Below are positions 6,872 to 32,000 of a stretch of DNA of 32,000 nt, piece by piece. This DNA is from Bdellovibrionales bacterium (GTDB taxonomy: Bacteria; Bdellovibrionota; Bdellovibrionia; Bdellovibrionales; UBA1609): positions 150,001-182,000 of the forward strand of contig OY843585.1 of the NCBI GenBank assembly GCA_963692945.1, given 5' to 3'. The notes beneath the pieces were generated by a model that had not been told where the DNA came from, searched no databases, and saw only the letters and a list, made by a program, of their open reading frames with translations. The number at the start of each line of letters is the position of its first letter. Position 1 is the stretch's first letter. A program made the position numbers and the translations under genes.

Positions 6872-8083
6872 CTACTTAGACAATTGAAATTCAGAGTGAA
6901 GAGCTTGAGCCACTTTTGCAAGATGAGATTCATCAATCACAGCACTTATTTTTATTTCAGAAGTTGTTACAAGATGCAAAGGAACACCTAGTGATTGGAA
7001 AACAGAAAAAAACCGACCAGCAACACCTGAATGATGAGACATACCCACTCCTACAACAGAAATTTTAGAAACTTTATCAATAATTATAATATTTTTTTCG
7101 TTCACCATAGTTTTCAAAATATCTAAACACACTTTGGAATCGGTTTGAGAAACAGAAAAAGCAAGGCTAGATGTGCCAGACACCCCACTTTTAGAAATAA
7201 TATCTACAAAAATAGATTGTTTCCCTAATTTTTGAAACAGCTCTGAAATAAAATCCAAATCCTCTGCTGGAATCTCTTTTATTTTAATAACTATAGTATT
7301 TGAATCATGAGCGACGGCTGATACAACTGACCCTTCCATAACATTCTCCTTGTTTACAATCCAAGTTCCTTCTTCTTTTTCAAAGGCATGACGAACATGA
7401 ATTTTTATTTGATGTTTAGCTGCTAACTCCACACAACGAATTTGTAAAACCTTTGATCCTAGAGAAGACATTTCCATCATCTCAGAAAATCCTAGTTTTT
7501 TAATTTTCTTTGCTGATGGAATAATCTTAGGATCTCCTGTAAAAACTCCGGCAACATCTGTATAAATTTCACACATTTCTTGTTTTAAAACAACTGCTAA
7601 AGCTATAGCCGTCAAATCACTCCCCCCACGACCAAGAGTGGTGATCTGTTTTTCTTTAGTAACTCCTTGAAATCCTGCTATTAAAGGAACAGCTCCTCTC
7701 TCAAGAACTTTTCCTATAGTGTCTGTCTCAATGGATTCTATGTTGGCCTTAGAAAAAAAAGAATCGGTATGAATCCCCGCTTGATAACCAAGCAAAGGAT
7801 GGGTTTTTATTTTTCTCTTTTCTAAAGCCATACTCAAAAGAGCAACACTCACCTGCTCTCCAGAAGAAAGAAGCATATCGTAAGAAAGTCCCCGATACAA
7901 AGGATAAACTTTTTCAGCCATTTCTACCAAATGATTGGTATGACCAGACATTGCAGAAATGACAACAACAGGATGTTCACCTTTCTCATAATCTTTTAAA
8001 AGACGATCCGCAATGAGTTCTATTTTCTCTATAGAACCTACAGAGGTTCCACCAAATTTTTTAATCACTAAATTGTTATCCAC
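6872..8083 (-). CDS. lysC: Aspartate kinase
   Basis: KFGGTSVG, TLGRGGSDLTA and C-terminal ACT-like repeats. I chose the GTG at 8083 because AGGAG (8093-8089) lies 5 nt upstream; the longest ORF starts at the TTG at 8107. Confidence 0.9.
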   Translation of the reverse strand: MDNNLVIKKFGGTSVGSIEKIELIADRLLKDYEKGEHPVVVISAMSGHTNHLVEMAEKVYPLYRGLSYDMLLSSGEQVSVALLSMALEKRKIKTHPLLGYQAGIHTDSFFSKANIESIETDTIGKVLERGAVPLIAGFQGVTKEKQITTLGRGGSDLTAIALAVVLKQEMCEIYTDVAGVFTGDPKIIPSAKKIKKLGFSEMMEMSSLGSKVLQIRCVELAAKHQIKIHVRHAFEKEEGTWIVNKENVMEGSVVSAVAHDSNTIVIKIKEIPAEDLDFISELFQKLGKQSIFVDIISKSGVSGTSSLAFSVSQTDSKVCLDILKTMVNEKNIIIIDKVSKISVVGVGMSHHSGVAGRFFSVFQSLGVPLHLVTTSEIKISAVIDESHLAKVAQALHSEFQLSK

Positions 8084-8122: not shown

Positions 8123-8908
8123 TTAAGTCTTATAACCTATTAACATAAATCTTGTATATTTTTCTAAATCTAAATGCCCTTCATAAATCAAACGTCCCAT
8201 AGAGGCCATCTTTTTAAATTCTTCTAGAGAAGAAACACAATTCACATGCTCTTTAAGACCTTTATAGTTATTACTTTGTAAAATAATTAGTTTTTCAGCT
8301 GGAATCTTATCCCACCATTCTTTAAATTTTTCTATATGTTCACAAGATGTATTAATAATTGTATCTGGAACCATGGTTAATTTCTCAGATTCTCCATTAA
8401 ATTTCAAAGTTGTAAAAGTTTCTCCAGCATAATGAATATCTAAAATATTTTTTAAAGTGGCTTTAAACTTCCAGTTATCCTTTACAAAATAACGATTGAT
8501 ATCTTCTGACACTTTGACACTCAATTCATCTATTTCAAAAAGAAAAATATTCTTAGTAGAAAAAAAAGAATCTCTGAAAAAAAGAAAAGCCAAAAATCCA
8601 TACCAGCCAGCACATAAAGCCACAATCCCTAGATTTGATATTCCTTTTTCTTTTAAAACCTTTAATATCCACTCCTTTGACTGTAGCTGACCACGAGAGG
8701 TTGCTTTTTTTAAACCCTGAATAATTTCTGAACTATGAGCTTTAAAGTATTCTGATTCTAAAACCCTTTTTAATCCTTTTAAATAAGTTGTAGTAAAGAA
8801 GGGCTTCTTTTCCGATAAGCTTTGAGATTCTTCTAAATGAAGCGAAGGTTGATAGATCGCTTCAAACAAAGTAAAAAGATCAGATGTTGATTTGTTATTT
8901 TTTTCCAT
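8123..8908 (-). CDS. Hypothetical protein with weak class-I (Rossmann) methyltransferase-like features
   Basis: 261-aa ORF inside the operon. IVALCAGWYGFL (a G-x-G-like loop), an acidic FEID and DTIINTSCEH resemble SAM-methyltransferase motifs I, II and IV. No firm family assignment. Confidence 0.5.
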   Translation of the reverse strand: MEKNNKSTSDLFTLFEAIYQPSLHLEESQSLSEKKPFFTTTYLKGLKRVLESEYFKAHSSEIIQGLKKATSRGQLQSKEWILKVLKEKGISNLGIVALCAGWYGFLAFLFFRDSFFSTKNIFLFEIDELSVKVSEDINRYFVKDNWKFKATLKNILDIHYAGETFTTLKFNGESEKLTMVPDTIINTSCEHIEKFKEWWDKIPAEKLIILQSNNYKGLKEHVNCVSSLEEFKKMASMGRLIYEGHLDLEKYTRFMLIGYKT

Positions 8909-11662: not shown

Positions 11663-12560
11663 AAACTAAATAAAAAAACCACTTATCCATAATAGGCACA
11701 GACAAATAAACTATAATACTTAAGTTGATCCATAAAAAAAATCTTAACCATTTTGTTTGATGATTCAAATAATGATAAAATTCATAAATGATTTTTAAAA
11801 CGAGAGGGCATAGAAGAAAAATATACATCAAACCGGCTCTCAAAAATAATGGAGAGATGAGAGCTAAACCTACATAAGCAAGCATATAAAAACCCATTTC
11901 ATAAATGGTTTTTTGAAATCCATAAATGACAGGTAAAACAGGAACCCCTGCTTGATTGTAATCTTCTTTATATCGGATGGCTAAGCTCCAAAAATGTGGC
12001 ATTTGCCACAGAAACATAAGTAAAAAAAGATACACACATTCTGTTGAAAAAAGATTGTTGTTTGAAAGAGAGTATCCAATAACAGGAGGTAAGGCACCAG
12101 GGATAGCACCAAAAACAGCTCCATGACTAAGTCGTTTCTTCCAAAAAAGAGTGTAAAAAACATTGTATAAAAAAACGGTCAAGAGAGCTAAAAAAGATGT
12201 TAAAGGTTTTAATAGAAATAATAAAAAACCACCAAAAACAATCATGGTAAAAGCCAAGACATAACCTTGAAGAGGAGATAAACTTCCTCTTGCAATCGGT
12301 CTCCTTTTGGTTCTTTCCATTTTCTGATCCAATCTCCATTCTTGAGATTGATTCAATACAAAACTTCCACTAGAAACAAGATAAAGACCTACAAGGAAAA
12401 AAAGAAAAATCTCTGTAGAAAAAATGGAAATCTCATTTAAAGATAAAAAATAGCCTGCACTGGCTGTTAATAAAACAAAGATAACTATGCCAAATTTAGT
12501 TATTCTTATAAAATCTTTTAGTAAATGTTTCATAATTTTTTTAAAACTAACTTGTCCCAT
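11655..12560 (-). CDS. ctaB: Protoheme IX farnesyltransferase (heme O synthase)
   Basis: UbiA-type polytopic protein (NQSQEWRLD...RTKRRP) sitting directly downstream of the oxidase genes. Confidence 0.85.
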   Translation of the reverse strand: MGQVSFKKIMKHLLKDFIRITKFGIVIFVLLTASAGYFLSLNEISIFSTEIFLFFLVGLYLVSSGSFVLNQSQEWRLDQKMERTKRRPIARGSLSPLQGYVLAFTMIVFGGFLLFLLKPLTSFLALLTVFLYNVFYTLFWKKRLSHGAVFGAIPGALPPVIGYSLSNNNLFSTECVYLFLLMFLWQMPHFWSLAIRYKEDYNQAGVPVLPVIYGFQKTIYEMGFYMLAYVGLALISPLFLRAGLMYIFLLCPLVLKIIYEFYHYLNHQTKWLRFFLWINLSIIVYLSVPIMDKWFFYLVYE

Positions 12561-25192: not shown

Positions 25193-26509
25193 TCATCTGC
25201 CCTTTAAAAAGAGAACTTTACAACCACCTCTGTTTTCTACATCTGCGGCTTTTTTAAGAATTTTAATTAACTTCTTATCCCTATTTTGAATGGCATACTG
25301 TATGGGTTTAGATTCAACACCATCCATAGCTTCTACATCTGCACCTGCTTTAATAAGAATCTTAGATTCTTCTACCAACTTATTTTGAGCGGCAAGATGA
25401 AGTGGTGTCATACCTGAGCTATCCCTTACATTCACATCCACATTTTTATCAAGGAGACGATTAACCAATTCTGTATATCCTTGTTTAACGGCAAAATGAA
25501 GTAATGTCCCACCAAAAGCATCTTTCTTTTTTAGATTTGTAGTTTTTTTCAAAAGTTGTATAGCAAGATTCACATGTCCGTTTTCAATAGCATAATGAAT
25601 CGCTTTTCTACCAAAATCATCTACCATATTTACAATGTTATCAGGTATTGAAGGTTGTAAAGCCACTATACTTGATGCTTTATTTCCTAAAATATAAGTA
25701 TTATGCCCTCCCACTTTTTCTTTTTTGTTTATAATAAGATCTACTATAGCTGAGTAACCTCCAATTCCACCATAATGTAATGCTGTCTTCCCAAGATTAT
25801 CTTTTAAACCTACATCTACACCTCTAGTGAAAAGAACCTTAACTATATTTATATGTTTATTTTTAACAGCAAGGTGTAGTGGTGTCACACCCAACTTGTC
25901 TTGCTTATTGAAATTAGAATCTCCTCCTGTAAGTAAAATTGTAGCTATTCGTGTGTAATCTGATATAGCGTTAAAATTTAAACTATTCCAAATAAAGGAA
26001 TCATTTTTCAACCGGTTGTTACCATTTACATTTTCTGTATTTTCTGAAAGAACTTTTTTTTCTATTCCACTAGGTCCTTTATCAACAGTGAAATGCAGGG
26101 GAATCCGACCAAGATTGTCTTCTATATTAGGATTTGCACCTTTTTCAATTAGAAGTTCAACAGATTCTATATGTCCATTTTCAACAGCAAGATGAAGTGG
26201 TGTCTTATATTTTTTATCTTGAATGTTAACATCCATCTTTGGATCTTTTGTAAGAATTAAATCAATAATATTTGTATAACCTCTCTCAGCAGCAAGATGC
26301 AATAGACTTGAGCCTCTTGAATCTTTTAAATCTATAGGATAACCTTTTGAAATAAGATCTTCGGCTTTTTCTACATTCTCATGTTGAATAGCCCACAATA
26401 CAGGATGTTTAATATTTTGTTCATTGATTTTTTTGGCATTAGTGTAACCTATTTTTGGAATAAATAATAAAATTCCTGATAAAATAAAAAATAAACGAAA
26501 ATATTCCAC
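25193..26509 (-). CDS. Secreted ankyrin-repeat protein (about 9-10 ANK repeats)
   Basis: Signal peptide MEYFRLFFILSGILLFIP, then repeated G.TPLHLAV..GH..IV..LL..GA units. Confidence 0.85.
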   Translation of the reverse strand: MEYFRLFFILSGILLFIPKIGYTNAKKINEQNIKHPVLWAIQHENVEKAEDLISKGYPIDLKDSRGSSLLHLAAERGYTNIIDLILTKDPKMDVNIQDKKYKTPLHLAVENGHIESVELLIEKGANPNIEDNLGRIPLHFTVDKGPSGIEKKVLSENTENVNGNNRLKNDSFIWNSLNFNAISDYTRIATILLTGGDSNFNKQDKLGVTPLHLAVKNKHINIVKVLFTRGVDVGLKDNLGKTALHYGGIGGYSAIVDLIINKKEKVGGHNTYILGNKASSIVALQPSIPDNIVNMVDDFGRKAIHYAIENGHVNLAIQLLKKTTNLKKKDAFGGTLLHFAVKQGYTELVNRLLDKNVDVNVRDSSGMTPLHLAAQNKLVEESKILIKAGADVEAMDGVESKPIQYAIQNRDKKLIKILKKAADVENRGGCKVLFLKGR

Positions 26510-26672
26510 AATCTCTCTTTCAAAATAAATTTCTTAACCACAAAGATATAATATAAATTTAAATAAAAATCCATAAGCTATTTATATGTATGTAAAAATT
26601 TCCTGTTTGTTTATTTTAGATCCGATGAACTTAAGGGTTTATGTCCTAACAGGAAAAAAATTCATTTTCATT

Positions 26673-26699
26673 GAAAAAATAAAAAGCTTTCGCTTCCCC
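26673..26699 (-). terminator. Second (distal, truncated) copy of the tRNA-spacer terminator hairpin
   Basis: Part of the 90-nt direct repeat 26670-26759 = 26929-27018. The GGGGAAGC-GAAA-GCTTTT stem-loop on the minus strand is followed by a T-run. Confidence 0.3.
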
Positions 26700-26738
26700 T
26701 TTTTTTAATTTAGTAAATATTTATTTTTCCGTGTAAAA

Positions 26739-26898
26739 TGGCGGAGAGGGAGGGATTCGCCTACTACATTCCCTCGCATCCAGCTCACTCATTGCGTAGG
26801 CTCACCTCAATCACTAAGAAAAACTTCCTGTTTTTCTTCCCAGTATTCCTTGCTCCTAAAGTCGCAAGCAACACAGGTCGTTCTTTCGTTTCGAATCC
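26739..26898 (-). repeat. tRNA-tagged module, copy A: 139-nt GC-rich core (26760-26898) plus a 21-nt copy of the tRNA-Ser 3' end (26739-26759)
   Basis: The core is nearly identical to 30227-30365 and 30409-30547 in inverted orientation. TGGCGGAGAGGGAGGGATTCG is identical to 26998-27018 of the intact tRNA-Ser gene. Confidence 0.9.
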
Positions 26899-27089
<191 letters not shown>

Positions 27090-27246
27090 TAAGACACTTT
27101 CTAAATAATAGCTAAATTGTATCCTTACAAGAATCAACAAGAAAAAACAATTTATTAAATAATGTCTTTCTTTTTTGAATTTAAAACTAAAAAATACAAA
27201 AAAGACTTATAATCAAACTTCGTTCTTAGTAAAGTAAAACTCTAAT

Positions 27247-27323
27247 GTGCCCGTAGCTCAATTGGATAGAGCATCTGACTACGGATCAGAAGGTTAGGGG
27301 TTCAACTCCTCTCGGGCACGCCA
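27247..27323 (+). tRNA. tRNA-Arg (anticodon ACG), CCA encoded
   Basis: Acceptor GTGCCCG/CGGGCAC, anticodon stem TCTGA/TCAGA with loop CTACGGA, and T-arm AGGGG-TTCAACT-CCTCT. Confidence 0.95.
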
Positions 27324-27341
27324 TTTTTAAAACATTGAAGG

Positions 27342-27914
27342 TTACTGGCTTTGAGGAATTTTTTTAATAGAAAGAACTTCATAATATTCGTCTAAAGTGA
27401 TTTCATAACCATCTTCTCTAGCCTTTTCCACTAAAGTTTTGGCTAATTCTTTTTTAGTTTCTTCTGAAGCCGCTTCAAAAAATTGCTGCCCTTGAGATTC
27501 TAAATTTTCTTCTAAATTTGTTTTTTTACGCTCCTTACCTGTTCTTTCCTTCAAAGTCTCTAGCAATTCCTCTTCATACTCTACTTTCAACTCATTTTCT
27601 AACCTCTGTTGTATTGTATCAACAATCTTCGGGGTTTTTTCCAAGCCATCTTTCCATTGAGGATGAACATCAAGCTCTGAATAATCTGAAGATTCTTCTA
27701 ATAAAAAATTTTCAGCATATTCTATTTCATCATTTGAAAAGTTAGCAATATCCCTAAAGGTTTCCGATGAAAAAAAATAAAACCCTATCCCTATTGCAGA
27801 AACACACAACAATCCAACAAATAAAAAAATAGATTTTTTAGATAAATGTATCCATCTCATAATAAAATAATCGGTAAATTTGGACTTCATCCTTAGCAAA
27901 TAATAAATTTTCAA
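27342..27914 (-). CDS. Hypothetical membrane-anchored, Glu/Lys-rich protein
   Basis: ORF with one TM helix (IFLFVGLLCVSAIGIGFYFF) lying 3 nt downstream of the glutamate-synthase-like gene. The start is uncertain: TTG at 27914, or ATG at 27890 or 27860. Confidence 0.55.
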   Translation of the reverse strand: MKIYYLLRMKSKFTDYFIMRWIHLSKKSIFLFVGLLCVSAIGIGFYFFSSETFRDIANFSNDEIEYAENFLLEESSDYSELDVHPQWKDGLEKTPKIVDTIQQRLENELKVEYEEELLETLKERTGKERKKTNLEENLESQGQQFFEAASEETKKELAKTLVEKAREDGYEITLDEYYEVLSIKKIPQSQ

Positions 27915-27917
27915 GAA

Positions 27918-29312
27918 CTAAAGATGTATAATATGCTCTTTTTTTAGATCTGAAAAAGATTTTAACCCTAAAGCACTTATTAATTCATACTGGTAATTCA
28001 CCAAATGGTCCACATAGCATTTAATTCTTTCTGATTTTTCCTCAATATTTAATCCTCTCATCAGTTTTTTAGAATGTGTTGTGATTCCTGTAGGGCAATT
28101 ATTGGTATGGCATTTTAAAGCTTGAATACAACCCAGAGCAAATAAAAAACCTCTTGCCGTGTAAATAGCATCAGCCCCTAAACCCAAAGTCATTACTTGA
28201 TCTCCTGAATTGATAAGTTTTCCTGCACATAAAATTTTAAACCGATCTCTAATATGTAATTCTTTTGATAAAGCTTCAGTGATTTTTAAAGCCTCAACCA
28301 ACGGAAAACCCAAATCATCCATAAAAGTTTTAGGAGAAGCTCCTGTCCCACCCTCAGAACCATCAATAGATATGTAATCTGGAAAAATATTTTCTTTTTT
28401 CATTGTTAAGAACAACTCTTTCAATTCACTCTCTCTACCTAAACAAAATTTAATTCCTGTAGGAAGGCCACTGATTTCTTGCACATCTTTTATAAAATGA
28501 ACTGTGGAAAGAGCATCTTTACATTCTCTATGCCTAGCTGGAGACAAAACATCTTGTCCTAAAGCAATATTTCTCAATTCAGCAATTTCTGCTGTGATTT
28601 TTTCTTTAGGCAATAGTCCTCCTTTACCTGGTTTTGCTCCTTGAGAAAACTTAATCTCTATCATCTTGACTTGTTCCAACTCAGAAATAACTTTCAACTT
28701 GTCAGGATCAAAACTTCCATCTTCTTTTCTGATACCAAATTTGGCTGTTCCTATTTGAAAAATAAGATCTGCTTGCTCCATTAAATGATATTTAGGGTAA
28801 CCTCCCTCTCCTGTATTTATAGGTATTTTTGCTTTCTTTGCTCCTCTTGAAAGAGCACGAACAGCATTTTGACCTAAAGACCCAAAACTCATTCCTGCAA
28901 TTAAAACAGGTTTAGTGATTTTATAACTGGTTTTTAGATTTCGCTCTTCTCCAAAATAAAGAGAAAAAGGTGTGATCTTTTCCATGTTAGGAAAAAAGGA
29001 GTGTTTTAATTTTATTTCTTGAGAATCAAAATTAAGAAGTGAACCAAAAGCAGAAGCTGTATCCATATTTTTAGCTTTCTTATACACATCCGTTCTTTCC
29101 GTTCGGCTAAAAGGTTTTTCTTCTGTATCACTAGCATAAAGATACTGACGAAACTCTGGACCTAATCCCTCTAAAAAATAACGAAAAAAAGCCAATAAGC
29201 CAAAGTTACGAAGTAGAGTGTGACGTTTTTGTATATACTTACAATAGAAATTTAGAATAATGAGTAAAAAAAGAAAGACACTCAAATAAATATAACGAGG
29301 AAATTGAATCAA
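27918..29312 (-). CDS. FMN-binding glutamate synthase family protein (GltB FMN-domain homologue), membrane anchored
   Basis: GEGGYP, KFSQGAKPGKGGLLP and IDGSEGGTGASP motifs of the GltS FMN domain, plus an N-terminal TM. The start is uncertain (see findings). Confidence 0.85.
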   Translation of the reverse strand: MIQFPRYIYLSVFLFLLIILNFYCKYIQKRHTLLRNFGLLAFFRYFLEGLGPEFRQYLYASDTEEKPFSRTERTDVYKKAKNMDTASAFGSLLNFDSQEIKLKHSFFPNMEKITPFSLYFGEERNLKTSYKITKPVLIAGMSFGSLGQNAVRALSRGAKKAKIPINTGEGGYPKYHLMEQADLIFQIGTAKFGIRKEDGSFDPDKLKVISELEQVKMIEIKFSQGAKPGKGGLLPKEKITAEIAELRNIALGQDVLSPARHRECKDALSTVHFIKDVQEISGLPTGIKFCLGRESELKELFLTMKKENIFPDYISIDGSEGGTGASPKTFMDDLGFPLVEALKITEALSKELHIRDRFKILCAGKLINSGDQVMTLGLGADAIYTARGFLFALGCIQALKCHTNNCPTGITTHSKKLMRGLNIEEKSERIKCYVDHLVNYQYELISALGLKSFSDLKKEHIIHL

Positions 29313-29650
29313 ACTTATTAAAAATAAAGAGGGTAATAAAATTTGTACAAAAGCTGATAATTTTTCAATCTTAAAAAAAATAAGACCTCCTAATATCCTT
29401 ATAATAGCAATTTAAATATCATTACAAAAGACTTTCTTTTAAAATTATAGGGATTATTTTATCTGTTCTTGTATAGACTACTACTATGTTTTTAAAAATG
29501 ATAAAAAATACATTAAGAAATCAACAAAAAAGCTAATCCATCTCTCTACTATCTTTGAATCTTCATCAGATCTAAAAATTTTCCTTGCAAAATTTTTCTA
29601 GGCTGGATAAAAGAAAAGGACTGGTTCATCAAAACAATAGAGGTCAACTC

Positions 29651-29926
29651 ATGTTTTCCAAGTTCTTCTTAAAATCTAAAAATAAAGACCTTGCATTTTT
29701 AATCATCCAAATTCATTTATTAGTCTTCATTCTTGTTGGGGTTTTATGGTCTATGTCCAGACTCAATCAAGGGTCTCCTTCTTTTTTAACAATGCTTTTT
29801 TCTGGTAAAAATCATTCACAAATTCAAGCCAAAGATCAAAAAAGGTCTGCTACTATTGTTTCTCCTGATAAAAAAAAACCCTCCACAATTCATAATATAG
29901 ATTTTCAAAATCCTCCAAAAAAATAA
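29651..29926 (+). CDS. Small hypothetical membrane protein
   Basis: The ATG at 29651 is preceded by GAGG. One TM helix (LAFLIIQIHLLVFILVGVLW) and no recognisable family. The longest ORF starts at the TTG at 29585. Confidence 0.3.
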   Translation: MFSKFFLKSKNKDLAFLIIQIHLLVFILVGVLWSMSRLNQGSPSFLTMLFSGKNHSQIQAKDQKRSATIVSPDKKKPSTIHNIDFQNPPKK

Positions 29927-30049
29927 AGAATGGTCTTCCATTTTATAATAAGTGTTATTCTATATAATGAGAGTTCCCTATAAAATCCGATAAAAAGTAA
30001 GGACTGCTCTTGAAAATAAGTTTAGTTTTATATAGGATGGTTTTTATTC

Positions 30050-30125
<76 letters not shown>

Positions 30126-30226
30126 TTTTTAAACGGAAAAATAAATATTTACTAAATTAAAAAAAGGGGAAGCGAAAGCTTTCTATTTTTTTAATTTATT
30201 ACTGCTTTAAATAGGTAGAGGTTGTA
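30126..30226 (+). repeat. Spacer module downstream of tRNA-Asn, an inverted copy of 26899-26997
   Basis: TTTTTAAACGGAAAAATAAATATTTACTAAATTAAAAAAAGGGGAAGCGAAAGCTTTCTATTTTTTTAATTTATTACTGCTTTAAATAGGTAGAGGTT matches the reverse complement of the tRNA-Ser spacer with only a few differences. Confidence 0.85.
30166..30192 (+). terminator. Terminator-like hairpin downstream of tRNA-Asn (possibly bidirectional)
   Basis: GGGGAAGC (30166-30173), GAAA loop, GCTTTC (30178-30183), then TATTTTTTT. An A-run precedes the stem. Confidence 0.5.
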
Positions 30227-30386
30227 GGACTTGAAACGAAAGAACGACCTGTGTTGCTTGCGACTTTAGGAGCAAGGAATACTGGGAAGAAAAACAGGAT
30301 GTTTTTCTTAGTGACTGAGGTGAGCCTACGCAATGAGTGAGCTGGATGCGAGGGAATGTAGTAGGCAAGTCCCTCCGCCTGAGCCA
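30227..30386 (+). repeat. tRNA-tagged module, copy B1: 139-nt core (30227-30365) plus an exact 21-nt copy of the tRNA-Asn 3' end (30366-30386)
   Basis: CAAGTCCCTCCGCCTGAGCCA is identical to 30105-30125. By hand count the core has 65 G+C in 139 nt. Internal 9-bp hairpin at 30287-30309. Confidence 0.9.
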
Positions 30387-30408
30387 TTTACAAAAAACAA
30401 AACTTATT

Positions 30409-30568
30409 GGACTTGAAACGAAGGAACGACCTGTGTTGCTTGCGACTTTAGGAGCAAGGAATACAGGGAAGAAAAACAGGATGTTTTTCTTAGTGACTGA
30501 GGTGAGCCTACGCAATGAGTGAGCTGGATGCGAGGGAATGTAGTAGGCAAGCCCCTCCGCCTGAGCCA
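30409..30568 (+). repeat. tRNA-tagged module, copy B2: core (30409-30547) plus a 21-nt tRNA-Asn 3' end copy with one mismatch (30548-30568)
   Basis: Tandem to B1 after a 22-nt linker, with 3 substitutions in 160 nt. Both tags are followed by TTTACAAAA. Confidence 0.9.
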
Positions 30569-30577
30569 TTTACAAAA

Positions 30578-30946
30578 CTCTAGTTCAGTTAAGGTAAATT
30601 TCTACTCTTATTCTAACGAGCTTTTCATCGCAAGAGAGACGCTCTTCAAATCTCGTTAGAATAAAAGTTACTTAATAGGCTTATGTTTGAACTAGAGAAA
30701 AACTGCTGTTTTTCGCATATTAATTTAGGAGGTTTTCATCGTAAGAGGGACACTCTTCAAATCTCGTTAAAATAAAAGATTTAAACATAGAGAAAAACTA
30801 CGGTTTTTCGCATATGGGTAATCTCTTCAAGTTCAGAAAATAAGAAAGGTATTCCTAGAGAAAAACTGCTGTTTTTCGCATATTAGTAATCTCTTCAAAT
30901 CTCATTAAAATAAGAGTTGCTTAATAGGTTTATGCTTGAACTAGAG
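30578..30946. repeat. Mosaic of four degenerate tandem units built from shared sub-repeats; the first unit is a ~120-nt imperfect palindrome (MITE-like)
   Basis: The sub-repeat CTAGAGAAAAAC-NNNN-GTTTTTCGCATAT occurs at 30692, 30787 and 30855. CTCTTCAAATCTCGTTA(G/A)AATAAAAG occurs at 30642, 30753, 30823 and 30891. TT(A/G)CTTAATAGG.TTATG.TTGAACTAGAG occurs at 30668 and 30917. The inverted ends are CTCTAGTTCA (30578) and TGAACTAGAG (30688, 30937). Confidence 0.8.
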
Positions 30947-30962
30947 TTTTTTATCATAGACT

Positions 30963-32000
30963 CTACTTTGATGAGAACTTAATGTTATTATCTCTCAAAA
31001 ACTTTTTTACATCGTTAATCGCTATAGCAAAATTTAAATTTTGTGTAGCAACAATATGATCTATAATCAAAACAGGAACACCTATAACCTCTTGAGTACT
31101 CTCTAAAAATAAAGCACCACCACTGTTTCCAGAAGACGTTGGACTTGTGTATTGGATATAATTACGATGCTCTTCTTTGCGGATTTGTGAGATATACCCT
31201 TTAGTCAATGTCCCACGAAGACCTTGAGGAGATCCTGAAACTACAACTTCTTGTAAAAGTTCCAAGTTATCAGAATTTCCTAGTTTCACAGGGATCCCTA
31301 CAGGTTTATCTATTTGTAAAACCGCTAAATCCTTTGTTGAATCTATAGCTAAAATTTCTTTAACTACAAATTCCCGTCCATCAAAAAGACGAACTATATA
31401 CTTTGTTTCATATTCATGGTCTTTAATCCTCTCTTTAGAAGGTTGAACAACATGGTAATTGGTTACAATCTTATCTTTATCAACAAAAAAACCACTCCCT
31501 AAACCACCTATTTGTTTCCTCATGTTGTTTTCTATCATTTCCATAATCTCTTCTAGCTCTCTATTAGTGTCATCATCATCTTCTTCTTCCTTCACACTTC
31601 CTATGTCTTCCATCACACTTCTTACGTCTTCAACCAACTTTTCTATTTCTTTTTTTCTCTCTTTTTCTCTCTCTTCATCCTTATAAGTTGCTTTTTCAAT
31701 AGACGTAATTGTCACAACAGAATTTAAAAAAACATGACTAGATATCTTTGCATCTTCAAGGTCTTCCATTTTTACATCTGGTAAATCAAGAACTTCTTCC
31801 ACATTGTATAAAGACACATTTGAAGCCACACCTGCACCTATACCTCCACAAATAACAGGAGCCTTCAAAATTCCAGGTAATAAAAACATTCCAACTGTCG
31901 TTAACCCATAAAGCAATACTTTAGGATCTTTAGTTACAATGTGTTTCCCTGTTTGATAAGATGTGAAACAAGCTACACCATTTAAAGCAAGAGATGTCCA
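30963..32000 (-). CDS. Trypsin-like (S1/DegP-type) serine protease with a hydrophobic N-terminal region and an acidic linker; the 5' end probably lies beyond the window
   Basis: Catalytic motifs TNYHVV (His), DLAVLQI (Asp) and GNSGGALF (Ser). The frame stays open from 31916 to the window end; a TTG at 31916 or a downstream ATG are alternative starts. Confidence 0.75.
   Translation of the reverse strand, partial: WTSLALNGVACFTSYQTGKHIVTKDPKVLLYGLTTVGMFLLPGILKAPVICGGIGAGVASNVSLYNVEEVLDLPDVKMEDLEDAKISSHVFLNSVVTITSIEKATYKDEEREKERKKEIEKLVEDVRSVMEDIGSVKEEEDDDDTNRELEEIMEMIENNMRKQIGGLGSGFFVDKDKIVTNYHVVQPSKERIKDHEYETKYIVRLFDGREFVVKEILAIDSTKDLAVLQIDKPVGIPVKLGNSDNLELLQEVVVSGSPQGLRGTLTKGYISQIRKEEHRNYIQYTSPTSSGNSGGALFLESTQEVIGVPVLIIDHIVATQNLNFAIAINDVKKFLRDNNIKFSSK

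Follow-up and report, generated by a model that had tools for sequence, protein, structure and literature searches.

Modules behind tRNA-Asn and tRNA-Ser(GCT) and their T-loop complement

The 32,000-nucleotide (nt) stretch analyzed here (the window; positions 150,001 to 182,000 of contig OY843585.1, forward strand, Bdellovibrionales bacterium assembly GCA_963692945.1) carries three copies of a short repeat, which we designate the module: two stand in tandem behind tRNA-Asn(GTT), and one stands behind tRNA-Ser(GCT). Each module consists of a 139-nt core and a 21-nt tag that repeats the end of the neighboring tRNA from the T-loop to the CCA; the source of the tags in the Asn units is segment 30105–30125 of tRNA-Asn. 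The tandem units recur with a period of 182 nt, and 3.3 kb separate the two loci, which are inverted relative to each other. Between each tRNA and the first module lies a filler (filler S), which at the Asn locus was found by a terminator scan to hold a bidirectional terminator-like hairpin (30167–30184) followed by a T-run.

Besides the tag, the only locus-specific part of the module is its first 7 nt. This 7-mer reads GGACTTG in both Asn copies (30227–30233 and 30409–30415) and GGATTCG in the Ser copy (the complement of 26892–26898), the tags start with CAAGTCC in the upstream Asn unit and with CGAATCC in the Ser unit, and the 7-mers are the reverse complements of these starts, all as described in an earlier note on this DNA. 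Compared with the tRNA itself, the Asn 7-mer is the reverse complement of tRNA-Asn nucleotides 56–62. An invariant AA behind it extends the complementarity to T54 and T55 of the genuine T-loop, and the resulting 9-mer GGACTTGAA, which covers nucleotides 54–62, bears out the 9-nt similarity reported for the opposite strand; the tag is preceded by GG. The T-loops of tRNA-Asn and tRNA-Ser differ at positions 57 and 59, and both differences are mirrored in the module, at positions 6 and 4. The core between 7-mer and tag is nearly invariant, as claimed, with differences at 2–4 of 132 positions and a within-genome identity of 97–98.5%; therefore, two exact complements inside a 7-nt island are not a matter of chance.

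A plain target-site duplication does not suffice for an internal sequence that tracks tRNA identity, in agreement with the earlier reasoning, and this argues for a base-pairing requirement between the 7-mer and the T-loop. The requirement is partly supported: the rule is kept in newly found copies and the pairing (helix P1) appears in the consensus fold (both described below), but it is not kept against a module's own mutated tag. The statement that every 7-mer is perfectly complementary to its own tag stood for copy 1 and the Ser copy and failed for copy 2, whose tag starts with CAAGCCC (30548–30554) and pairs at 6/7 positions because the T>C change at 30552 costs one P1 pair; against the tRNA-Asn T-loop and against the upstream tag, the same 7-mer scores 7/7. 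The start of the Ser tag, formerly given as 26738, is at 26739 (Table 1).

Table 1. Coordinates of tRNA genes, fillers, module parts and predicted core helices in the window
Feature	Position	Strand	Basis or remark
tRNA-Asn(GTT)	30050–30125	+	ARAGORN; Rfam tRNA model, 69 bits
Filler S behind tRNA-Asn, ~98–101 nt	30126–30226	+	Inverted-repeat comparison
5′ guide-like 7-mer GGACTTG (9-mer GGACTTGAA)	30227–30235	+	5′ side of P1
Module 1 core, 139 nt	30227–30365	+	Consensus fold; covariance-model match, 195 bits
Tag 1, CAAGTCCCTCCGCCTGAGCCA	30366–30386	+	tRNA-Asn nucleotides 56–76 (C56 to CCA), 0 mismatches
22-nt filler separating units 1 and 2	30387–30408	+	Sequence
Module 2 core	30409–30547	+	Tandem copy, 98.5% identical to core 1
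Tag 2	30548–30568	+	tRNA-Asn 3′ copy, one mismatch (T>C at 30552)
tRNA-Ser(GCT)	26998–27089	−	ARAGORN; Rfam tRNA model
Filler S behind tRNA-Ser	26899–26997	−	99% complementary to 30127–30224
Ser-locus module core	26760–26898	−	5′ 7-mer GGATTCG, complement of 26892–26898
Ser tag, CGAATCCCTCCCTCTCCGCCA	26739–26759	−	Exact copy of tRNA-Ser nucleotides 56–76 (26998–27018)
Second, partial filler S (first 69 nt, with terminator) behind Ser tag	26670–26738	−	Repeat comparison
P1, module positions 1–7/140–146	30227–30233/30366–30372	+	RNAalifold consensus
Px, module positions 11–19/85–93	30237–30245/30311–30319	+	RNAalifold consensus
P2, module positions 22–59	30248–30285	+	RNAalifold consensus
P3, module positions 61–83	30287–30309	+	RNAalifold consensus
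P4, module positions 99–128	30325–30354	+	RNAalifold consensus

Further copies in related genomes and predicted core fold

Three related genomes (L001–L003; protein identity 79–85%) are syntenic with the window at tRNA-Asn, tRNA-Arg and both tRNA-Ser genes. No module, filler S or tag was found at the syntenic tRNA loci of these genomes, and in L002 a distance of 13 nt separates tRNA-Asn from the stop codon of the trypsin-like gene. Because the same tRNAs stand there without a module, the modules are insertions. Further copies were searched for with a hidden Markov model built from the three window copies (nhmmer) and run on loci reached via a neighboring protein. A metagenome contig of the European Nucleotide Archive (L012), on which this protein is 71% identical to that of the window, carries a copy behind tRNA-Met(CAT), composed of an unrelated 55-nt filler, a full module 67% identical to those of the window (compared with 97–98.5% within the genome) and a tag. 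The 5′ end of the Met module, GGATTTGAA, is the perfect complement of the tRNA-Met T-loop TTCAAATCC, and the tag (CAATTCC...) contains one mutation. Behind tRNA-Ser(GCT) and tRNA-Ser(GGA) of the same contig, a shared 26-nt filler is followed by 5′ module fragments that start with GGGTTCGAA and GGGTTCCAA, respectively; their 7-mers, GGGTTCG (GCT) and GGGTTCC (GGA), could pair with CGAAUCC via a G-U pair, and these fragments also equal the T-arm read directly, owing to the TTCGAA palindrome.

Every extra copy of a tRNA 3′ end found in about 190 kb with 25 tRNA genes is joined to a module. The duplication comprises the tag plus 3 to 9 nt (24–30 nt) and is variable in length, and the left flanks of the modules end in GTA, ATT, TGA, AAT and GAG, without a common motif. 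Because the tag always has the sequence of the local tRNA while the tRNA is intact, it is not carried between sites. No similarity beyond 9 nt was found between the reverse strand of the module and tRNAs, and the idea that an inverted copy of the tRNA 3′ end continues beyond the 7-mer on its upstream side was rejected as marginal (p 0.17 for Asn and 0.03 for Ser).

The sequenced units also indicate when the complementarity is set. The 7-mer matches the upstream T-loop sequence in 4/4 units and the downstream own tag in 2/4, and where tag and tRNA differ (copy 2 and the L012 Met unit), it agrees with the T-loop of the tRNA, not with its own tag. Since the 7-mer follows the tRNA in both units with a mutated tag, the complementarity is set when a copy arises and is left unrepaired later. 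The pairing is thus a mark of origin, or of pairing with the genuine T-loop, and its later upkeep against the tag is absent; the T-loop of the cognate tRNA, or of a fresh tag, is the most apt description of the 7-mer's partner. We also observed, among the window, L001–L003, L012, L013 and L016, that T-loop positions 57 and 59 vary between orthologous tRNA-Asn genes (CAAGT, CGAAT and CGAGT) and between the tRNA-Ser(GCT) genes of related genomes (CGAAT and CAAAT); the target of the 7-mer is itself evolving.

Two loci of L012 deserve mention. At 8262–8478, the order is a pseudo tRNA-Gly, a possible second tRNA-Gly fragment, a fragment of the module comprising helices P2 and P3 (8364–8426, between two tRNA-Gly genes) and the intact tRNA-Gly(GCC). 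The pseudo-copy consists of the leader and nucleotides 1–55 of tRNA-Gly(GCC) and ends exactly at T55; the breakpoint again falls between nucleotides 55 and 56, but here the 5′ part of the tRNA is duplicated. At 11875–12072, behind tRNA-Ser(GCT), the module breaks off once the 5′ half of the P2 stem is complete, and another structured segment interrupts it there. This segment contains an extensive inverted repeat (TTCAGATAGCAAGTT...AACTTGCTATCTGAA), and its last nucleotides, ...GTCTAGGCAATT, resemble the 3′ end of the module.

More members of the family were recognized through their antisense strand. Antisense open reading frames (ORFs) of 62 amino acids (30199–30387, minus strand) and 120 amino acids (30207–30569, minus strand) run over the window modules; they start with an ATG formed opposite a CCA and the T behind it, and the annotation of the source genome lists the longer one as protein P0121. 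Homologues of the antisense ORF escaped a word-index protein search; an exhaustive phmmer search found eight further clusters, one of them from a named Bdellovibrionales metagenome-assembled genome (MAG), and a profile search added P0132 alone. These array "proteins" consist of 2–4 identical units of 56–68 amino acids, are up to 267 amino acids long and end in an antisense translation of a tRNA: P0122 ends in ...EGLEPPTGWLTATCSTN, which is tRNA-Asn in antisense, and the ends of P0123 and P0131 back-translate to tRNA-Ala(UGC) and tRNA-Pro(GGG), respectively. To judge from these translations, they are read-throughs of tRNA-(filler-module-tag)n and not real proteins, which accounts for the spurious repeat "proteins" that annotations of Bdellovibrionales MAGs place behind tRNA genes. 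The reading of the module as an antisense protein-coding repeat, which has in its favor that the ORF is called as a protein in several assemblies, was rejected: the window period of 182 nt is not divisible by 3, the two units lie in different frames, the frames also differ between arrays (P0127, P0129 and P0131 versus the others), no Pfam domain is present and the start codon comes from the CCA complement.

The arrays can be decoded at the positions that matter. In the frame of the window, nucleotide 59 can be deduced from the amino acid that follows Gly in the tag (G from Leu CTN, A from Phe TTY, U from Ile ATH), and module position 4 from the amino acid that precedes Pro at the opposite end (C from Ser AGY, U from Asn AAY, A from Ile ATH). 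The tag/module residues are L/S in the window Asn units, P0122, P0124 and P0132, F/N in the window Ser unit, and I/I in P0123 and P0126; in P0129, the tag residue is L and the module residue, read in another frame, is Val (GTN). Nucleotide 59 and module position 4 thus covary in 8/8 informative cases and in three states, one of which is a transversion (U59:A4), and nucleotide 57 and module position 6 likewise covary wherever they are informative. In P0127, P0128 and P0131, the codon positions that would decide are ambiguous; P0127 was considered as a G-U exception and dropped, as its Asp codon (GAY) leaves position 59 ambiguous. Across DNA copies and arrays, the T-loops CAAGTCC, CGAATCC, CAAATCC and CGATCCC are each matched by the 5′ end of the module. 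New copies whose 7-mer departs from the T-loop, the case that the earlier note had named as speaking against a required pairing, were looked for, and the Met, Ser and Asn/Ala-type array copies all obey the rule; the observation is thereby confirmed and generalized by independent copies.

It is barely credible that chance or the symmetry of the T-arm, with the 7-mer as a direct copy of T-stem and loop, explains the match, or that a protein-coding repeat does. Symmetry would suit loops containing TTCGAA, in which the direct and inverted readings are one base apart, the L012 Ser fragments (GGGTTCGAA) are exact in the direct reading and a covariance model aligns the T-arm of tRNA-Ser itself to P1. 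By contrast, the Asn (CAAGTCC) and Met (CAAATCC) loops fail in the direct reading and fit the reverse complement at 9/9 positions, which largely refutes symmetry, and the three-state covariation of 59 with 4 speaks against chance.

Empty sites, the different tRNAs occupied, remnants, arrays, and cores that are 67% identical between genomes and nearly identical within one together indicate that the family is gained and lost at tRNA genes. Exact scans with 18–25-mers detected no module in public genome contigs, in which five matches (L004–L008) were to a 19-mer only, or in metagenome contigs, in which L009 and L010 shared only the apex of the P2 hairpin; exact scans of viral contigs, including one with the conserved GCCTACGCNATGAGTGAGCTGG, and blastn against plasmids and phages gave nothing or chance matches. 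The first exact-scan patterns covered positions later found to be variable, and the GCCTACGCNATGAGTGAGCTGG scan covered viral contigs. The P2 apex GCTTGCGACTTTAGGAGCAAG occurs exactly at the tip of a longer hairpin in L009 (3258–3278) and L010 (1312–1332), two unrelated Joint Genome Institute metagenome contigs with small phage-like ORFs; the sharing could be due to chance or to a common protein-binding hairpin.

The copies are predicted to share a branched fold of five helices (P1, Px, P2, P3 and P4; Table 1, in the numbering of module 1). The RNAalifold consensus, which includes the diverged L012 copy, contains P1 next to other helices with compensatory changes; eleven of its pairs show such changes. 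In a five-sequence covariance-model alignment, 12 of the 43 pairs changed on both sides and 96.4% of the cells were paired; 0/500 shuffles reached the observed values, and slid controls gave 35–48%. Within the window, A15G and C89U each mend the A15-C89 mismatch of copy 1. P2 and P3 retain their stems at 53% identity between genomes, and the 3′ domain (30320–30366; GAGCCUACGCNAUGAGUGAGCUGGANGCGA...AGUAGG; GAGCCUACG..AUGAGUGAGCUGGA) is 85% identical. On these models, the five-helix core fold is conserved with compensatory pairs.

Three forms had been proposed for the pairing, namely an RNA helix, folded DNA and an inverted recombinase site. The strand bias in the predicted helices (12 G-U versus 3 A-C cells) weakly favors RNA on the tRNA-sense strand and does not separate the three. 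The segments GAGGG (30350–30354) and CCCTC (30371–30375) are both present as noted, but their role as a mimic of the T-stem is unsupported and was rejected, with 3/5 pairs in the Met copy and the observed values met in 108/500 shuffles. Two further candidates were discarded: a tRNA-like acceptor-stem mimic (89–96 with 66–73), in which 78% of the cells were paired and which was equaled in 151/500 shuffles, and a likeness to group II domain V (GAGCC..), in which the AGC triad is unpaired on inspection.

The conserved fold with its compensatory changes, the 85% identity of the 3′ domain and an R-R-L motif that is invariant across all antisense translations could belong to a non-mobile host small-RNA gene that is co-processed behind tRNAs, its helix being kept by compensatory evolution and its loci alike through gene conversion between the inverted repeats 3.3 kb apart. 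This is very unlikely: the three closest relatives lack the module at the corresponding tRNA loci, different tRNAs are occupied in different genomes, and truncated and decayed copies, uncompensated tag mutations and arrays of identical units all speak for something that moves.

Nature of the element and likeness to known systems

The units form a novel family with an unusual logic: in tandem or singly, they immediately follow tRNA genes of Bdellovibrionales-like bacteria and point the same way as the tRNA, which in other members is one for Met, Ala, Pro or Asn. Each unit comprises a lineage-specific filler (~12–100 nt), a core of ~139 nt and the 21-nt copy of the end of the neighboring tRNA, and has no coding capacity. 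No description of such a tRNA-linked element was found in Rfam 15 or in literature searches. At the gathering threshold, Rfam 15 matched three tRNAs only in the whole window; at E ≤ 10 over 26500–31000, there was no sense-strand match over the module, the sole overlap being ylbH (17.7 bits, E 1.7; threshold 50), and the families without a match included group I and group II introns, hepatitis delta virus (HDV)-like, hammerhead, twister, hatchet and pistol ribozymes, retron msr, HEARO, tmRNA and Y-RNA-like families. Pfam searches detected no integrase, recombinase, transposase, reverse transcriptase or nuclease among the window ORFs of at least 80 amino acids, and no integrase, recombinase or transposase among the ORFs near the L012 copies; this search covers the window and the L012 loci, so there is room for an enzyme acting in trans from elsewhere.

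We tentatively regard the module as the unit of a new family of mobile, non-coding, tRNA-linked elements that pairs with the T-loop in a guide-like manner, most likely as RNA, and assign this reading a probability of roughly 0.45. The unit would be read through from the tRNA gene as RNA of the tRNA-sense strand. The 5′ 7–9-mer and the T-loop portion of the tRNA 3′ fragment would then form a helix (P1), which would set the 3′ end of the core (...AGUAGG) beside C56 and leave the 14-nt acceptor strand with its CCA as a tRNA-like tail. Acting as a guide, the P1 pairing would tie a new copy to its tRNA during spread: a copy would arise only where the 7-mer fits the local T-loop, and the target tRNA, or the gene for it, would supply the tag. 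The element could be retargeted by one or two transitions within the 7-mer, from GGACUUG to GGAUUUG to GGAUUCG, which would serve the loops CAAGUCC, CAAAUCC and CGAAUCC, respectively. The DNA copy might be made (i) by a recombinase that cuts between nucleotides 55 and 56 at an attC-like folded site, (ii) by reverse transcription, either target-primed or template-switching, and subsequent recombination of the product with the tRNA gene, comparable to the Neurospora retroplasmids, or (iii) through a joining step at the RNA level. Each of these routes, the first two of which call for a trans-acting recombinase or reverse transcriptase, fits some features and fails others. A bolder version, possible though on the doubtful side, is a new class of selfish, protein-less, RNA-guided element: a structured RNA of ~140 nt that rides on tRNA transcription, carries a reprogrammable 7–9-nt T-loop guide, uses the tRNA 3′ fragment (C56 to CCA) as its tail, and spreads through a host or unlinked enzyme (reverse transcriptase, recombinase or ligase) or by its own catalysis.

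Several points weigh against the guide reading. (i) Only four full copies are known as DNA; the arrays are read solely as amino acids, with position 57 and some codons ambiguous, and the fold was derived from the few sequences used to test it. (ii) In single-sequence folding, the P1 pair probability is ≤0.02 and enforcing the helix costs 3–5 kcal/mol. (iii) Two of the four sequenced tags carry uncompensated mutations within P1, so that P1 is without visible purifying selection after insertion. (iv) A consensus scan detected no promoter-like site for the module, and in the window copies a strong terminator lies between tRNA and module. (v) As the Asn and Ser loci are inverted and 3.3 kb apart, gene conversion could have homogenized their cores, and the contrast between a nearly identical core and a divergent 7-mer could partly reflect selection rather than recent retargeting. 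(vi) The guide model alone leaves the 21-nt tag duplication unexplained.

Elements integrated at tRNA genes, namely those bounded by the attL and attR of tyrosine integrases, remnants like the cis-mobilizable elements (CIMEs), and tandem islands at tRNA or tmRNA genes, share with the module a direct repeat from T-loop to CCA, an intact tRNA, tandem accretion and empty sites; they differ from it in that the module unit is only 170–260 bp, has no integrase and shows RNA-type structural covariation in its arm. An attP carries one fixed tRNA end, whereas the module core (98.5% identical) stands behind Asn and Ser tRNAs with the local tag in each case, and a classical attP lacks the internal inverted 7-mer that tracks the T-loop. 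A classical attP remnant fails as an explanation, as do a simple target duplication and chance. Integron attC sites likewise have complementary 7-nt boxes 60–140 nt apart, a structure kept over sequence, arrays, and a box to the right of the crossover that belongs to the neighboring unit. Unlike attC, the module has no RYYYAAC/GTTRRRY (its boxes are GGAYTYG and CRARTCC), no intI and no cassette ORFs, its predicted fold is branched with five helices in place of one imperfect hairpin, its target is a T-loop, and 21 nt are duplicated.

On this pattern, the module could be a DNA-level cassette, that is, a miniature integrative element moved in trans by a tyrosine-type recombinase that crosses between T-loop nucleotides 55 and 56, in which the 7-mer and the tag start are inverted core sites or attC-like strands (R″/R′), the hairpins are DNA structure and the arrays result from repeated insertion. 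All tags begin exactly at C56, the pseudo tRNA-Gly of L012 ends exactly at T55, the units stand in tandem, and the 7-mer fits the upstream T-loop in 4/4 and the downstream tag in 2/4 units, as attC-like phasing predicts; in relatives, moreover, genes are inserted preferentially in the DNA behind these tRNAs. Seven nucleotides is a typical length of an overlap or core box, and units of 168–261 bp fall within the size range of attC and attP sites. We nevertheless consider the cassette unlikely. An element that carried its own tRNA 3′ end would produce a chimeric tRNA on a new target, yet all tRNAs are intact and all tags are of the local type; there is no integrase gene in the window or at the examined loci and no R-box-like consensus, the helix G-U pairs weakly favor RNA, and the excision of DNA circles <260 bp is sterically hard.

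A second alternative is retroposition. Here, module RNA with a tRNA-like CCA tail would be copied by a template-switching reverse transcriptase into a tRNA-(unit)n cDNA that recombines with the tRNA gene by homology, the tag being the second homology arm and the 7-mer only shaping the tRNA-like 3′ end or aligning the tRNA fragment. The succession of a tRNA-CCA, a few nucleotides and units that each end in ...CCA is what end-to-end template switching predicts, the duplication varies in length (tag plus 3 to 9 nt), and the lack of an enzyme gene in the unit agrees with a non-autonomous element. The Mauriceville and Varkud retroplasmids of Neurospora serve as a precedent: their hybrid cDNAs with mitochondrial tRNAs reportedly integrate by homologous recombination. 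They share with the module a tRNA-like CCA 3′ end, a tRNA joined at the CCA and integration beside a tRNA gene via tRNA homology, and differ as mitochondrial 3.6-kb plasmids that encode their own reverse transcriptase and have no T-loop-complementary guide. The HDV-like ribozymes at the 5′ end of R2 elements (with a P1 that includes 28S target sequence) and retroposons resembling short interspersed nuclear elements are similar in host co-transcription, a helix between element and host, non-autonomous copies and target duplications of variable length; they are eukaryotic, however, and the module has neither a ribozyme family match nor a reverse transcriptase and bears its host-derived strand at the 3′ end. 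A retron msr-msd has a similar closing helix, but the module is followed by a further unit, by repeats of another kind and by a protease gene that converges on it, and msr gave no match. We consider retroposition quite unlikely. No reverse transcriptase gene was found in the window or near the L012 copies, the CCA is genome-encoded in these tRNAs and so is no marker of a post-transcriptional addition, and both the stop of the tag at C56 and the resetting of the 7-mer are left unexplained; to our knowledge, m5U54 and pseudouridine 55 do not block reverse transcriptases, and we know of no established retroposition of non-intron RNAs in bacteria.

The guide-like pairing itself has parallels in elements with a short internal guide that covaries with a flanking target: the exon- and intron-binding sites (EBS/IBS) of group II introns, the internal guide sequence of group I introns (P1/P10), the guide tetranucleotides of IS200/IS605 and the bridge RNA of IS110. 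Like an internal guide sequence facing ligated exons, the module 9-mer is complementary across the uninterrupted junction of nucleotides 55 and 56. The module differs from all of these in having no Rfam intron match, a 139-nt core that is too small, a flank that is not the 5′ part of the tRNA, no gene for a transposase or intron-encoded protein, and a 21-nt target duplication, which none of them makes. In particular, a group I intron is contradicted by the lack of an RF00028 match, by U55, which would face A8 and not G, and by an upstream filler in place of tRNA nucleotides 1–55; a palindrome-associated transposable element of the IS200/IS605 type or a TnpB omega-RNA is contradicted by the lack of a common left-flank motif, the 21-nt duplication and the lack of tnpA or tnpB. 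For the bridge RNA, no recombinase gene lies nearby, and the helices predicted from the four DNA copies have 1-nt bulges only. A miniature inverted-repeat transposable element would have terminal inverted repeats, of which the module has none beyond the 7–9-mer, and the duplication of 24–30 nt is variable.

A reading as scaffold plus guide is tempting because the tag starts right after GTT (G53 T54 T55) in the tRNA, which we take to be a GTN protospacer adjacent motif of the Cas12k type. As in the homing of type V-K CRISPR-associated transposons by CRISPR RNA and in TnpB omega-RNA, a scaffold of ~140 nt would be followed by ~21 nt equal to the tRNA 3′ end, with insertions downstream. The module loci differ from these systems in having no cas12k, tnsB/C, tniQ or tnpB, no CRISPR repeats and no transposon ends, in being arrayed with identical "guides" and in a 5′ segment that would occlude the seed. 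This candidate is disfavored: no gene of either system was found in the window or at the L012 loci, Rfam gave no match, and the 5′ complementarity would stay unexplained. Overall, the module works like a guide-bearing mobile element and looks like a miniature tRNA-integrated cassette, and it departs from each in defining features.

If the guide reading is true, the module would be a compact natural case of target choice by base pairing in a protein-less mobile element. It would join group II introns, IS605, IS110 bridge RNAs and the OMEGA/CRISPR systems as a further sign that nucleic-acid guides are recurrent in mobile DNA, and would point to a partner enzyme. A near-universal T-loop target together with a 7–9-nt guide that single transitions can retarget would be tractable and potentially useful. 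Whatever the mechanism, the modules define a new conserved family of putative structured RNAs that is specific to a bacterial lineage little studied so far.

Other repeats and genes near the modules

Filler S, with its strong bidirectional terminator, occurs three times in the window (26670–26738, 26899–26997 and 30126–30226). It always begins 7–8 nt past a tRNA-type CCA and stands once without a module, and may be a separable unit.

On the sense strand, at 30318–30416 (also at 30500–30583 and in the complement of 26705–26807), a Shine–Dalgarno-like GAGGUGA lies 9 nt before an AUG. The small ORF linked to it (MSELDARECSRQVPPPEPF...) extends through the tag in the window; the L012 Met copy keeps the Shine–Dalgarno-like site and the AUG, with an ORF of 8 codons. 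The conservation of this arrangement is probably structural, not coding.

The window is AT-rich and contains many ankyrin and TPR genes, and its genes are housekeeping genes according to Pfam (32-kb window); the nearest homologues of its glutamate-synthase-family protein are assigned to Bdellovibrionales. A second repeat family occupies 30569–30962, the interval from the last Asn tag to the trypsin-like gene. Its units consist of GAAAAAC...GTTTTTC hairpins and a ~56-nt repeat and start right at the end of the tag; a relative with 79% similarity, at 7927–8150 of L001, starts right behind tRNA-Ser(TGA). This family may be another element associated with tRNA ends. The trypsin-like peptidase ORF (30963–31916, minus strand) encodes 317 amino acids in the window versus 455 in L002, and an in-frame stop lies just upstream of it; it may be truncated or a pseudogene.

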